From NCBI RefSeq assembly GCF_055900595.2, contig NZ_CM148325.1: a stretch of 64,000 nt of DNA, one strand, 5' to 3'. A program made the position numbers and the translations under genes. Below, one piece after another: positions 11,541 through 55,584 of the stretch. How positions within the stretch are numbered: position 1 is the stretch's first letter; each line of letters starts with the position of its first letter. The notes beneath the pieces were generated by a model, which was not told the origin of the DNA, ran no database searches, and saw only the letters and a list, made by a program, of their open reading frames with translations.

Positions 11541-12602
11541 TTACAGCGCAATACGAATCACATCGTCTGGCTGGGTAGCTTCCTGCTGTTTAGTGGATTT
11601 TTGTTTCACACTGACATACAGCGTTTTGCCATCGGCAGACAGCGCCAGGCTGTTCGGATGAGTCGGGGTATCGAACGTTTTCACCACTTTATAGCTTTTC
11701 GCGTCAATCACACTGACTTTACCTGCCTGACGATGCGTTACGTAGGCTTCATTACGCGCTGGGTTAAACAGCACAGCCAGTGATTCCGGTGCCGCAACCT
11801 TCGCCAGAATATTGCCATTACGGGTATCGACCACTAGCACTTCTGCCGCTTTAGAATCGGTGATAAATGCACGCTGATTGGCGGTATCGAGGCTGATGTT
11901 GATAAAGAAGTGCTCTTTCCCATCATCCAGCAGCTTTTTACGGCTGAGGATTTTATTGTCGGCGGTGTCGATGGTAATCAATTCGCCGTCAGCGTTAGTG
12001 GTGTAAAGACGTTTGCCTTTGCTATCCAGCGCCAGACCGGTACTCATTTTACCGGTGTTCTGGATGGCGGTTTTCAGTTTGATATTCTCGCCATCAACGA
12101 CCCAAATCACGCTCTCTTTACCAATACCACTGATGTAAACGGTGTTCGTGGCATCATCAGCTACCAGCTCACGCGGTTGCAGCGGGCGCACCTCTTCCGT
12201 GCGCTTACGATCATCCAGCACCAGACGGCCTTTCACTTCGCCCGTTTTGGCATCTATCGCCGTGACCGCGCTGTTTACGGTGTTACCAAACCACAACGTC
12301 TGAGTCGTGTTATTGATGGTGGCACCAAACGGCTTGAGATCGTTATGGATCGCCTGCGTCACTTCCAGAGTGACCGGATCAAGACGATAAACCACGCCAC
12401 CTTTATCCAGTTTGCGGCTTTGCGAAGTGGCGAGCCACAGCGCGTTTTCTTGCTGGCTATAAGCCATTTCGTAGGCACCTTTACCTACCGCTTTACGCAG
12501 CATTTCTTCTGCGGCCTGCGTACTGAATGATGAAGCAACAAGCAATGAACCTAACAGTAATGAACCACGCAGGCGCGATGAAAACATATGACGTAAATGC
12601 AT
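11541..12602 (-). CDS. yncE: Beta-propeller protein YncE, 353 aa, secreted
   Basis: Length and sequence match K-12 YncE; N-terminal signal peptide. Confidence 0.85.
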   Translation of the reverse strand: MHLRHMFSSRLRGSLLLGSLLVASSFSTQAAEEMLRKAVGKGAYEMAYSQQENALWLATSQSRKLDKGGVVYRLDPVTLEVTQAIHNDLKPFGATINNTTQTLWFGNTVNSAVTAIDAKTGEVKGRLVLDDRKRTEEVRPLQPRELVADDATNTVYISGIGKESVIWVVDGENIKLKTAIQNTGKMSTGLALDSKGKRLYTTNADGELITIDTADNKILSRKKLLDDGKEHFFINISLDTANQRAFITDSKAAEVLVVDTRNGNILAKVAAPESLAVLFNPARNEAYVTHRQAGKVSVIDAKSYKVVKTFDTPTHPNSLALSADGKTLYVSVKQKSTKQQEATQPDDVIRIAL

Positions 12603-12688
12603 GACGACTCCCTTTGATGAACCGATATTTTTGCTGCTTCACAATGCTTCGCTAAGCGTAATCATCGTTACGCTCTTGTTATAAATGG

Positions 12689-12707
12689 GAATGGTAATCA
12701 TTATTTT
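12689..12707. promoter_or_regulatory. Candidate Fur box in the divergent yncE/yncD promoter region
   Basis: gaatggtaatcattatttt resembles the Fur consensus (gataatgataatcattatc); yncD is a TonB-dependent receptor and yncE is a reported Fur-regulon member. Confidence 0.4.
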
Positions 12708-12843
12708 CTCAAATGTGGAGCATTTCTTGCCGTTACGACTACAATTTTCTCAATTACTTAACGTATTGTGCCGTTTCATTTTCCATAAATTTACAATTTC
12801 ATTACCATGACGGCGTTTTCCCATTCTTAACCTGGCTTTTTTC

Positions 12844-14946
12844 ATGAAGATTTTTTCCGTCCGACAGACCGTTTTGCCCGCACTGCTTGTCCTTTCCCCC
12901 GTTGTTTTTGCCGCTGATGAACAGACTATGATTGTCAGTGCCGCACCGCAGGTGGTTTCAGAACTGGATACCCCAGCAGCAGTAAGCGTGGTGGATGGCG
13001 AGGAGATGCGTCTGGCAACACCGCGCATTAACTTGTCCGAATCACTGACCGGCGTGCCTGGTTTGCAGGTACAAAACCGGCAGAACTATGCGCAAGATTT
13101 ACAGCTGTCGATTCGCGGATTTGGCTCCCGCTCCACTTACGGTATTCGCGGTATTCGCCTGTATGTGGACGGTATTCCCGCCACAATGCCCGACGGGCAA
13201 GGGCAAACATCCAACATCGATTTAAGCAGTGTACAAAATGTGGAAGTGCTGCGTGGCCCCTTTTCTGCCCTGTATGGCAACGCGTCTGGCGGTGTAATGA
13301 ATGTCACCACCCAGACCGGGCAACAGCCACCAACCATTGAAGCCAGTAGTTACTACGGCAGTTTTGGCAGCTGGCGCTATGGGCTGAAAGCAACGGGCGC
13401 AACGGGAGACGGCACACAGCCCGGCGATGTCGATTACACCGTCTCAACCACGCGTTTTACGACCCACGGCTATCGTGATCATAGTGGCGCACAGAAAAAT
13501 TTAGCCAATGCCAAACTGGGCGTTCGCATTGATGACGCCAGCAAATTAAGCCTGATTTTCAATAGTGTGGATATCAAAGCAGATGACCCAGGTGGGCTAA
13601 CCGAAGCAGAATGGAAGGCGAATCCGCAACAAGCGCCACGCGCTGAACAGTACGACACGCGAAAAACCATCAAGCAAACTCAGGCTGGGTTGCGCTATGA
13701 ACGTAGCCTAAGTTCGCAGGATGATATGAGTGTGATGATGTATGCCGGAGAACGAGAAACGACCCAGTACCAGTCAATCCCAATGGCCCCCCAACTTAAC
13801 CCATCGCATGCGGGCGGTGTGATTACTCTACAACGTCATTACCAGGGGATAGACAGCCGCTGGACACACCGTGGCGAACTGGGTGTTCCGGTCACGTTCA
13901 CTACCGGCCTGAACTACGAAAACATGAGTGAAAACCGTAAAGGCTACAACAACTTCCGCCTGAACAGCGGTGTGCCGGAGTACGGGCAAAAAGGTGAGTT
14001 GCGCCGCGACGAACGCAATCTGATGTGGAACGTCGATCCTTATTTACAAACGCAGTGGCAGCTGAGCGAAAAACTGTCGCTGGATGCTGGCGTGCGCTAC
14101 AGCTCCGTATGGTTTGATTCCAACGATCATTACATTACTCCGGGTAACGGCGATGACAGTGGTGATGCCAGTTATCACAAATGGCTACCAGCCGGATCGT
14201 TAAAATATGCAATGACCGATGCCTGGAATATCTATCTGGCAGCCGGGCGTGGTTTTGAAACGCCGACGATTAATGAGCTGTCTTATCGTGCTGACGGTCA
14301 AAGCGGTATGAACTTTGGTTTAAAACCATCCACCAACGATACAATTGAGATCGGCAGTAAAACGCGTATTGGTGATGGGCTGCTTAGTCTCGCATTGTTC
14401 CAGACCGACACCGATGATGAAATTGTTGTCGATAGCAGTAGCGGTGGACGTACGACTTATAAAAATGCCGGAAAGACCCGTCGTCAAGGCGCTGAACTGG
14501 CATGGGATCAACGTTTCGCGGGAGATTTTCGCGTAAAAGCGTCCTGGACCTGGCTTGATGCGACCTATCGCAGCAATGTGTGCAATGAACATGATTGTAA
14601 CGGTAACCGGATGCCAGGGATCGCCCGTAATATGGGCTTTGCGTCGATAGGTTATGTACCGGAAGATGGCTGGTATGCAGGTACGGAAGCGCGTTATATG
14701 GGCGATATTATGGCAGATGATGAAAATACGGCCAAAGCGCCTTCTTATACACTCGTCGGCTTATTCACGGGGTATAAATACAATTACCACAATTTAACTG
14801 TGGATTTATTTGGCAGTGTCGACAATTTATTCGATAAAGAATACGTTGGTTCTGTCATTGTCAATGAGTCGAACGGGCGATATTACGAACCTGCGCCCGG
14901 GCGAAATTATGGTATCGGCGTGAATGTTGCGTGGCGATTTGAGTGA
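12844..14946 (+). CDS. yncD: TonB-dependent outer-membrane receptor, 700 aa
   Basis: Signal peptide, TonB-box-like N-terminus, C-terminal aromatic residue (RFE...WRFE); matches K-12 YncD length. Confidence 0.9.
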   Translation: MKIFSVRQTVLPALLVLSPVVFAADEQTMIVSAAPQVVSELDTPAAVSVVDGEEMRLATPRINLSESLTGVPGLQVQNRQNYAQDLQLSIRGFGSRSTYGIRGIRLYVDGIPATMPDGQGQTSNIDLSSVQNVEVLRGPFSALYGNASGGVMNVTTQTGQQPPTIEASSYYGSFGSWRYGLKATGATGDGTQPGDVDYTVSTTRFTTHGYRDHSGAQKNLANAKLGVRIDDASKLSLIFNSVDIKADDPGGLTEAEWKANPQQAPRAEQYDTRKTIKQTQAGLRYERSLSSQDDMSVMMYAGERETTQYQSIPMAPQLNPSHAGGVITLQRHYQGIDSRWTHRGELGVPVTFTTGLNYENMSENRKGYNNFRLNSGVPEYGQKGELRRDERNLMWNVDPYLQTQWQLSEKLSLDAGVRYSSVWFDSNDHYITPGNGDDSGDASYHKWLPAGSLKYAMTDAWNIYLAAGRGFETPTINELSYRADGQSGMNFGLKPSTNDTIEIGSKTRIGDGLLSLALFQTDTDDEIVVDSSSGGRTTYKNAGKTRRQGAELAWDQRFAGDFRVKASWTWLDATYRSNVCNEHDCNGNRMPGIARNMGFASIGYVPEDGWYAGTEARYMGDIMADDENTAKAPSYTLVGLFTGYKYNYHNLTVDLFGSVDNLFDKEYVGSVIVNESNGRYYEPAPGRNYGIGVNVAWRFE

Positions 14947-45480: not shown

Positions 45481-45673
45481 GGGAGACTCCTGTGATTAAT
45501 GTGTGTATTTGGTAAATTATTTGTTAATTAATATCAATCATCATAGAGACAGCATCTTGAAAGGACAAATCTGTGAAGAGCTTCATAAAAAGAAGGGTAA
45601 AAGGAATAAAAGGCAGAAAAAAAAGTAAGGAGTCATGCCCGTTTGCAAACAGTTGTTCTCAAACGGGCAATTT

Positions 45674-50700: not shown

Positions 50701-51661
50701 GAATTTCCGTATGGCGTAAGTTCAGCTTGTTCAGCGCATCGGCGGTATCGCGAATTTCTCGCTCGCCGCTCATAAAAATCAGAATGTCGCCAGGGCTTTC
50801 CTGGCTCAGTTCGTCTACGGCATCGAAAATCGCCTGCAACTGGTCGCGCTCGGTGTCATCAGCTTCTTCAACAATCGGGCGATAGCGCACCTCCACCGGA
50901 TAGGTACGACCGGAGACTTCGATAATCGGCGCATTATTAAAGTGGCGCGAAAAGCGTTCCGGGTCGATAGTCGCGGAAGTGATAATGATTTTTAGGTCAG
51001 GACGCCGCGGCAGCAACTCTTTCAAATAACCGAGGAGAAAATCGATATTCAGGCTGCGTTCGTGCGCTTCGTCAATAATGATGGTGTCGTACTGCATCAG
51101 CAGGCGGTCTTGCTGGATCTCCGCCAGCAGGATACCGTCGGTCATCAGCTTGACCATCGTGTTATCACTTACGTGATCGCTGAAACGCACTTTATACCCG
51201 ATGCAACCGCCCGGCTCCGTTTTCAGCTCTTCCGCAATACGGTTCGCCACCGTTCGTGCCGCCAGACGACGCGGCTGGGTGTGGCCGATCAGCCCTTTAA
51301 TCCCGCGGCCCAGTTCCATACAGATTTTCGGTAACTGAGTCGTTTTACCGGAACCCGTTTCCCCGGCGACGATCACCACCTGGTGATCACGGATTGCTTC
51401 GAGAATGTCCTGCTTTTTCTGACTAACCGGCAAATTGTCCGGATAAGTGATTTCCGGTCGTGCTGCTTCACGCAGCAGGACTTTCCCTGCCGCCTGGTCA
51501 ATCTCTTTCGCCATCTCCTGGAAAATGGCCTGTTGTGCATCAGGATTTTTAACCTTCTTCACGCCGTGCAGACGGCGGGAAAAACGCAGTCTGTCACGCA
51601 GCATCAGCGAATCCAACCGTTGCTGCAAGGCCGTAAAGGTCAATTTTTGTTGTTCTGTCAT
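47759..51661 (-). CDS. hrpA: ATP-dependent RNA helicase HrpA (DEAH-box), 1300 aa
   Basis: Helicase motifs (GETGSGKTTQLP, DEAHER); length matches K-12 HrpA. Confidence 0.95.
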   Translation of the reverse strand: MTEQQKLTFTALQQRLDSLMLRDRLRFSRRLHGVKKVKNPDAQQAIFQEMAKEIDQAAGKVLLREAARPEITYPDNLPVSQKKQDILEAIRDHQVVIVAGETGSGKTTQLPKICMELGRGIKGLIGHTQPRRLAARTVANRIAEELKTEPGGCIGYKVRFSDHVSDNTMVKLMTDGILLAEIQQDRLLMQYDTIIIDEAHERSLNIDFLLGYLKELLPRRPDLKIIITSATIDPERFSRHFNNAPIIEVSGRTYPVEVRYRPIVEEADDTERDQLQAIFDAVDELSQESPGDILIFMSGEREIRDTADALNKLNLRHTEILPLYARLSNSEQNRVFQSHSGRRIVLATNVAETSLTVPGIKYVIDPGTARISRYSYRTKVQRLPIEPISQASANQRKGRCGRVSEGICIRLYSEDDFLSRPEFTDPEILRTNLASVILQMTALGLGDIAAFPFVEAPDKRNIQDGVRLLEELGAITTDEQASAYKLTPLGRQLSQLPVDPRLARMVLEAQKHGCVREAMIITSALSIQDPRERPMDKQQASDEKHRRFHDKESDFLAFVNLWNYLGEQQKALSSNAFRRLCRTDYLNYLRVREWQDIYTQLRQVVKELGIPVNSEPAEYREIHIALLTGLLSHIGMKDADKQEYTGARNARFSIFPGSGLFKKPPKWAMVAELVETSRLWGRIAARIDPEWVEPVAQHLIKRSYSEPHWERAQGAVMATEKVTVYGLPIVAARKVNYSQIDPALCRELFIRHALVEGDWQTRHAFFRENLKLRAEVEELEHKSRRRDILVDDETLFEFYDQRISHDVISARHFDSWWKKVSRETPDLLNFEKSMLIKEGAEKISKLDYPNFWHQGNLKLRLSYQFEPGADADGVTVHIPLPLLNQVEESGFEWQIPGLRRELVIALIKSLPKPVRRNFVPAPNYAEAFLGRVTPLELPLLDSLERELRRMTGVTVDREDWHWEQVPDHLKITFRVVDDKNKKLKEGRSLQDLKDALKGKVQETLSAVADDGIEQSGLHIWSFGNLPDHYEQKRGNYKVKAWPALVDERDSVAIKLFDNPQEQQQAMWRGLRRLLLLNIPSPIKYLHEKLPNKAKLGLYFNPYGKVLDLIDDCISCGVDKLIDEAGGPVWTEEGFAALHEKVRAELNDTVVDIAKQVEQILTAVFNINKRLKGRVDMTMALGLSDIKAQMGGLVYRGFVTGNGFKRLGDTLRYLQAIEKRLEKLAVDPHRDRAQMLKVENVQQAWQQWINKLPPARREDEDVKEIRWMIEELRVSYFAQQLGTPYPISDKRILQAMEQISG

Positions 51662-52520: not shown

Positions 52521-55584
<3,064 letters not shown>

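Follow-up and report, generated by a model that had tools for sequence, protein, structure and literature searches.

The divergent intergenic region between yncE and yncD (pqqU) of Escherichia coli carries a canonical, conserved, Fur-occupied operator of yncE, a site which is already present in the literature. It is very probable that positions 12684 to 12707 (core 12687 to 12705) of the analysed window, i.e. of the whole 64,000-nucleotide stretch of DNA under study, form a Fur operator that occludes the yncE promoter, with a further layer of control added by RyhB and with pqqU largely outside Fur control. The present check adds the exact register and the anatomy of this site: the box holds the predicted -10 hexamer, and the region has one operator only, which belongs to yncE. 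The check also validates the scan from which it started, the first-pass annotation, in which a reader without tools had found the true operator, and it corrects a tempting inference, namely that the TonB-dependent receptor beside yncE transports iron and is controlled in the same way.

The yncE/pqqU locus

The window is a piece of E. coli chromosome. Of 5426 complete genomes, 5411 contain positions 12503-12943 with at least 95% identity, and yncE and pqqU are the genes annotated there. The intergenic region extends exactly from the yncE ATG (12602, minus strand) to the yncD/pqqU ATG (12844, plus strand) and is identical to that of K-12 MG1655 at 241 of 241 positions. Coordinates of the features discussed below are collected in Table 1.

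Divergence from K-12 displays a trough at 12150..13150, with 4 differences over about 1 kb as against 4.2% over the surrounding 7 kb. The trough is centred on the intergenic region and reaches into the coding regions of both yncE and pqqU. Purifying selection was considered as its cause and rejected: since the trough enters both coding sequences and strain CFT073 differs at 5 of the 241 intergenic positions, a recombination tract common to K-12 is more likely than selection.

Table 1. Features of the yncE/pqqU region; positions are those of the window unless a locus is named
Feature	Position	Strand	Basis
yncE CDS, periplasmic 7-bladed beta-propeller, Fur-dependent expression	11541..12602	-	ORFs; RefSeq annotation; published expression
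yncE/yncD (pqqU) divergent intergenic region, 241 bp	12603..12843	.	ORFs; RefSeq annotation, matching E. coli genomes
Conserved block GAAGCAUUGUGAAGCAG, complementary to the RyhB core (nt 41-58)	12634..12650	-	Duplex energy; conservation
Conserved stem-loop, 7-bp stem AGCGTAA/TTACGCT, loop CGATGA	12655..12674	-	Covariation
Predicted yncE transcription start zone, 5'UTR ~80-84 nt	12682..12686	-	Position of the predicted -10
Extended Fur-binding region, overlapping registers, two overlapping 7-1-7 units	12684..12707	.	PWMs; by-eye reading; ChIP-exo
Classical 19-bp Fur box, GGGAATGGTAATCATTATT on the plus strand, AATAATGATTACCATTCCC in yncE sense	12687..12705	.	15/19 consensus, PWM, ChIP
Predicted yncE -10 TACCAT (TACTAT or TATTAT elsewhere), wholly inside the Fur box	12691..12696	-	Sequence; alignment
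Predicted yncE -35 TCCACA in the invariant block CTCCAC(A/T)TT (12712..12720)	12714..12719	-	Near-invariant columns, 21 genera/species
Conserved marbox-like element ACGGCACAATACGTTAAGT, yncD-proximal module	12756..12774	-	1 mismatch to AYnGCACnnWnnRYYAAAY
yncD = pqqU CDS, TonB-dependent PQQ importer, divergent neighbour	12844..14946	+	ORFs; RefSeq annotation; literature
K-12 yddA Fur box	L016 5326..5344		yddA start

Published Fur occupancy and Fur-dependent expression of yncE

Occupancy of the box by Fur is evident from published ChIP studies. Gao et al. 2023 reported Fur ChIP-exo peaks at 1524928-1524940 in strain W3110 and at 1521238-1521250 (older coordinates) in MG1655. In the W3110 record the box lies at 1524918-1524936 and the yncE ATG at 1525021; the peak overlaps the box and corresponds to 12683..12695 of the window. 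If the offset from the old MG1655 coordinates to NC_000913.3 is taken to be 1976 bp, the MG1655 peak occupies the same place, 81-93 bp upstream of the yncE ATG. Under the same assumed offset a second MG1655 ChIP-exo peak (1520944-1520980, old coordinates) falls at 12953..12989, in the 5' coding region of pqqU, a stretch in which no Fur-like motif was found. The Fur ChIP-seq peak reported for CFT073 by Banerjee et al. 2020 (height 845) has its centre at 1711868, inside the CFT073 box (1711864-1711882).

Reports of Fur control over yncE go back to 2003 (McHugh 2003, as cited in later work), and Beauchene et al. 2015 also give a Fur site upstream of yncE. The box was also found by Huja et al. 2014 using PRODORIC matrices. 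The supplement of a 2026 Reg-Seq preprint remarks that the box exists and still lacks an annotation in RegulonDB; the K-12 coordinates that correspond to 12687..12705, 1523204-1523222, therefore have some curation value. No in vitro Fur footprint at the yncE box was found in the literature searched.

Expression of yncE responds strongly to loss of Fur. In the fur deletion strains of Gao et al. 2023 the log2 fold change of yncE was 3.1 in MG1655, 8.1 in W3110 and 3.6-5.5 in six more strains, so that by the published tables yncE is up 8- to 280-fold in eight of nine strains. In the CFT073 fur mutant of Banerjee et al. 2020 the increase was 147- to 205-fold. YncE protein is likewise overproduced in a fur mutant by published Western blot, and yncE is a member of the Fur-1 and Fur-2 iModulons. 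With ChIP peaks on the box and derepression in fur mutants, the iron-responsive regulation put forward in the first-pass annotation is supported for yncE; the expression check in a fur mutant that it had proposed has effectively been carried out in this published work, and the claim survives it.

Conservation of the operator and its assignment to yncE

Loci encoding YncE were scanned with one genome per species, which gave 79 loci and 70 usable upstream regions. The genera covered include Escherichia, Citrobacter, Salmonella, Enterobacter, Klebsiella, Raoultella, Kluyvera, Lelliottia, Leclercia, Phytobacter, Trabulsiella and Pseudocitrobacter, among others. The orthologous box, AATGATTAC(C/T)ATTC(N)CAT, is the top position weight matrix (PWM) match in all 70 upstream regions, at 15-26 bits. 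The E. coli box is more degenerate than that of most genera (20.9 vs 25 bits). A box is also present upstream of the yncE homologues of Buttiauxella, Rouxiella and Kluyvera genomosp. 3, and is absent at three Erwinia loci. In an alignment of the intergenic region from 21 taxa, representing about 20 enterobacterial genera, the Fur box is the longest invariant block.

The distance from the box to the yncE ATG is 94-106 bp, save in three natural-deletion variants at 55-59 bp, and it stays fixed while the length of the yncE/yncD intergenic region varies from 241 to 310 bp over 41 syntenic loci. No second Fur box scoring at least 13 bits was found near yncD in any of these 41 loci. The gene yncD is the divergent neighbour in 61 of the 79 loci, and several Citrobacter genomes in which it is not adjacent retain the Fur box. 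The fixed spacing to yncE, the variable intergenic length, the lack of a second site and the retention of the box without yncD together indicate that the operator belongs to yncE.

Some of the loci carry natural rearrangements. In several Citrobacter genomes no pqqU homologue lies beside yncE (loci L024, L025, L026, L029, L032, L034, L036, L039, L079 and L091). In one of these, C. youngae (L029), the yncD-proximal module is swapped for unrelated sequence that includes a REP-like palindrome, and neither the Fur box nor the yncE promoter module is damaged. Pseudescherichia vulneris and 'Escherichia sp. ESNIH1' (L043; L049, L050; 2900..3000) have naturally lost about 45 bp, and with them the 5'UTR hairpin and the RyhB-complementary block described below; CTCCACATT and the Fur box remain, the box at 55-59 bp from the ATG.

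The divergent neighbour pqqU

YncD is PqqU, a high-affinity importer of PQQ with no role in iron acquisition, and has been described as neither Fur- nor iron-regulated. The cue on which the first-pass annotation had relied in part, that an adjacent TonB-dependent receptor implies iron, was misleading: the substrate of PqqU is PQQ, not iron, and its dependence on Fur is weak at most. In the alignment the intergenic region consists of two conserved modules with a variable, indel-rich spacer between them. The yncE module comprises the -35-like block, the Fur box and the 5'UTR elements, and the yncD-proximal module comprises 12757..12810. The pqqU promoter is thus a separate conserved module, at least about 75 bp from the Fur operator and largely outside Fur control.

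Should the box instead be a shared bidirectional operator that represses both yncE and yncD/pqqU, PQQ uptake would also be iron-responsive. This is unlikely, even if several observations point in its direction. Gao et al. attribute the ChIP-exo peak of W3110 to yncE and yncD alike, and in their fur deletion data yncD is derepressed in W3110 (log2 2.95, p 2.7e-51) and in strain 042 (log2 2.02), a modest effect in two of nine strains. RyhB MAPS co-purifies yncD with yncE, for which its authors invoke overlapping head-to-head UTRs, and a weak plus-strand promoter-like site at 12638..12665 would put the box downstream of a distal yncD start. Against these stand the absence of any change of yncD in MG1655 lacking fur (log2 0.12, not significant, Gao et al.), the reports that the gene is not Fur- or iron-regulated, and the fact that its product transports no iron. 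There is moreover one box only, whose distance to yncD varies by about 70 bp and to yncE is fixed; it is retained where yncD is not adjacent, and the yncD module lies behind the variable spacer. The operator is therefore tied in spacing to yncE and not to both core promoters. A second Fur box near yncD, considered as an explanation of the weak Fur response, was rejected, as none exists in any genus.

The yncD transcript levels of Gao et al. differ between strains. In W3110 yncD rises from about 4-5 FPKM in the wild type to about 32 in the fur deletion strain, and in the MG1655 'wild type' it is already at about 30; in the same tables repression of yncE is only partial in the MG1655 'wild type'. 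The RNA-seq data for W3110 and strain 042 contradict the blanket statement that pqqU is Fur-independent. Given the yncD derepression in these two strains and its co-purification in RyhB MAPS, a modest, condition-dependent effect of the yncE operator on pqqU keeps a small probability. There is a slim chance that the yncE operator has a distal pqqU transcript under its control as well, one with a 5'UTR overlapping the yncE 5'UTR, and so couples PQQ to iron. If so, PQQ import would be repressed about 7-fold at full Fur activity and freed early in iron limitation. The Fur/RyhB-controlled YncE, proposed as a possible gluconolactonase, and PQQ import would then couple PQQ-dependent periplasmic glucose oxidation to iron starvation, and the Fur-independence of PqqU in the literature would be an artefact of incomplete repression under the conditions of the MG1655 datasets.

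The yncD-proximal module contains a marbox-like element. No other site in the window comes within one mismatch of the marbox consensus, but chance would supply 1.5 such sites per 64 kb, so that the sequence match alone is not significant; the element is conserved across genera. In other genera it also forms the palindrome TTAACG-N8-CGTTAA. Its spacing to a putative pqqU promoter (-35 TTTCCA, 12780-85; -10 TACCAT, 12803-08) is constant, and it is missing from one aligned Citrobacter locus without adjacent yncD, that of C. youngae. The constant spacing and this absence suggest that the element may serve pqqU rather than yncE.

The yncE promoter and the mode of repression

The sequence from 12720 to 12680, read in yncE sense, is CTCCACATTTGAGAAAATAATGATTACCATTCCCATTTATAAC. 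The predicted -35 (12719->12714) and the predicted -10 (12696->12691) are separated by a 17-bp spacer. A consensus promoter scanner did not call this promoter, since its match of 8/12 is below the cut-off of 9/12, and Cappable-seq supplements contain no start site near the yncE locus. Conservation of the predicted -10 is inseparable from that of the Fur box enclosing it. TATAAC (12685->12680) was considered as the yncE -10 and rejected for lack of conservation between genera.

Repression of yncE is likely to work by promoter occlusion, given that the box contains the predicted, conserved -10 hexamer, an arrangement customary for Fur; the -10, the -35, the start and the mode of repression are all deduced from the sequence. 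When iron is sufficient, Fe2+-Fur dimers would occupy the two overlapping 7-1-7 units at 12684..12707. Bound Fur would then cover the predicted -10 and part of the 17-bp spacer, by which RNA polymerase would be excluded and yncE kept silent. Under iron scarcity, or in a strain without fur, the operator would be free of Fur and yncE would be transcribed very highly.

An improbable alternative retains the functional Fur operator and has it act as a roadblock downstream of a yncE start near 12723, rather than by occlusion of the -10. It derives from RegulonDB, where yncEp is given a MarA site at -41.5. The region's best marbox has its centre at about 12764.5, and if the RegulonDB site is this marbox (12756-12774), the start would fall near 12723 and the Fur box would span about +18 to +39. 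For a start at 12723, however, the sequence offers neither a -10 nor a -35 of acceptable quality, and 12725..12755 is the least conserved segment of the alignment and rich in indels. A weaker marbox-like 20-mer at 12733->12714 (by eye, 3 mismatches) would give -41.5 for a start at about 12682, in agreement with occlusion. In addition, the RegulonDB annotation of MarA at yncEp is weak, and Reg-Seq saw no MarA footprint under salicylate.

Register and sequence statistics of the Fur box

The string gaatggtaatcattatttt, placed at 12689..12707 in the first-pass annotation, is found exactly there. The resemblance to the Fur consensus claimed for it is real and its register is off by 2 nt: read from 12689 the sequence matches the consensus GATAATGATAATCATTATC at 6 of 19 positions, and read from 12687 at 15 of 19. 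Over both strands of the 64 kb there are two matches of 15/19, the box at 12687..12705 being one of them, and none is better.

Sites were regarded as having Fur architecture if they contain overlapping 7-1-7 inverted heptamers (tGATAATnATTATCa) or at least three NATWAT hexamers, and the yncE box has this architecture. By eye, two overlapping units can be read at 12687-12701 and 12693-12707. AAATAAT-G-ATTACCA (12707->12693) matches the inverted heptamers at 5/7 and 6/7 positions, and TGATTAC-C-ATTCCCA (12701->12687) at 5/7 and 5/7. PWM matches at the box also occur in registers displaced by 3 and 6 nt, and the seeded PWM has a secondary match at 12681 (14.85 bits).

PWMs were trained on 16 established K-12 Fur promoter regions from which yncE was excluded (fepA-fes, fepD-entS, fepB-entC, fhuA, fecI, tonB, exbB, cirA, fiu, fhuE, fhuF, sodA, feoA, ryhB, sufA and yddA). 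In unseeded EM every start ended at AATGATAATCATTATCATT, the canonical Fur box. With the resulting matrix 12684..12702 ranks first in the whole 64-kb window at 20.75 bits, a score for which 0.02 chance matches are expected per dinucleotide-shuffled 64 kb and which is reached in 2 of 5000 shuffles of the intergenic region. With the consensus-seeded matrix 12687..12705 ranks first at 18.58 bits (0.05 expected; 6 of 5000 intergenic shuffles reach the score). The matrix scan suggested beforehand as a check of the site thus puts it at the head of the window. Against a uniform background the yncE site scores 20.9 bits, within the 18.4-27.1 bits of the 16 known sites, and in 169.5 kb of K-12 loci all 14 matches that score at least as high as the yncE site lie at known Fur-regulated promoters.

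Elsewhere in the window, the next PWM match is at 63397..63415 (19.3 bits), in a segment without a K-12 counterpart in the compared locus. Further matches are at 45520..45538 (17 bits; 32-50 bp upstream of the aldA ATG) and at 50975..50996, inside hrpA, and 54507..54525, inside ynbC, matches the Fur consensus at 15/19. No coincidence was seen between these four sites and published MG1655 ChIP-exo peaks.

A chance AT-rich likeness with no regulatory role, as the AT-richness of the intergenic region and the departure of the E. coli box from the consensus at 4 of 19 positions might suggest, has practically no probability and is refuted by the data, since the score is attained in 2-6 of 5000 shuffles of this intergenic sequence, about 20 genera share the block unchanged, ChIP peaks lie on the box in three strains, and expression is strongly Fur-dependent.

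The yncE 5'UTR and the RyhB layer

The control of yncE by Fur appears to be twofold, exerted on the promoter itself and, less directly, by way of RyhB, whose pairing site on yncE is a predicted one. RyhB is known from published work to activate yncE translation. RyhB, itself Fur-repressed, would activate yncE post-transcriptionally, probably by pairing at 12634..12650, and would thus act in the same direction as Fur.

The duplex of the conserved block at this position with RyhB has an energy of -20 kcal/mol, as against -9.4 +/- 2.9 for shuffles, and in 63 of 70 distinct orthologous UTRs no other segment forms a better duplex with the RyhB core. These energies are from calculations with the core and the block, as folding of full-length duplexes gave unrealistic end-to-end duplexes. 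CopraRNA scores the RyhB-yncE pair poorly (about -5 kcal/mol, rank 834). The predicted fold of the leader has the block paired to the ribosome-binding region and the start of the coding sequence, an arrangement that suggests activation of yncE by RyhB through an anti-antisense mechanism.

Upstream of this block in the transcript, the 5'UTR has a conserved stem-loop. Over 29 species 97% of cells are paired, with compensatory double changes in 7 of 7 pairs; the covariation score of 0.859 is reached by none of 500 shuffles and compares with 0.11-0.24 for slid controls. Its G-U pairs are compatible only with the yncE-sense strand. The hairpin had been called 'terminator-like' by a consensus scanner, a reading that was rejected in view of the covariation of the stem in yncE sense and of its location in a 5'UTR. 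A search of 12450-12950 against Rfam returned no family, every match having an E value above 1.

Comparison with known Fur-controlled systems

The yncE operator shares with the canonical E. coli Fur operators (fhuA, fepA-fes, cirA, fiu, sodA, ryhB, sufA, fhuF and others) the same 19-bp motif in overlapping 7-1-7 arrangement. It is also like them in a PWM score within their range, in ChIP occupancy, in derepression in fur mutants, and in its predicted position over the -10. There is no categorical difference. Within their range of scores the E. coli yncE box is one of the weaker ones, and YncE is without an established role in iron metabolism.

The bidirectional operators of fepA-fes, fepD-entS and fepB-entC likewise have a Fur box in a short divergent region beside a TonB-dependent receptor gene. 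At yncE/pqqU, however, robust dependence on Fur is confined to the yncE arm, the receptor PqqU takes up PQQ and shows no change in MG1655, and the single box is spaced to yncE.

For cirA and shiA, Fur control is combined with RyhB activating translation via the 5'UTR, and yncE is similarly Fur-repressed and RyhB-activated. As in these genes, its 5'UTR has a conserved block complementary to the RyhB core which is predicted to pair with the ribosome-binding region. The yncE case differs in that its pairing site and anti-antisense mechanism are predictions, with a poor CopraRNA score.

A close likeness in sequence is seen with the box at the start of yddA, in the yddAB-pqqL operon. The yddA box, AATGGGAATGGTTATCATT, and the yncE box in the register 12684..12702, AATGGGAATGGTAATCATT, are identical at 18 of 19 positions and have the same three departures from the consensus; both genes are core members of the Fur regulon. 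Outside the box there is no similarity between the two regions (32/79 over flanks and box), and duplication of the box was rejected on account of the dissimilar flanks. The yncE boxes of other genera are without the GGG/GG departures, and the departures shared by yddA and yncE are specific to Escherichia and a few Citrobacter-group loci.
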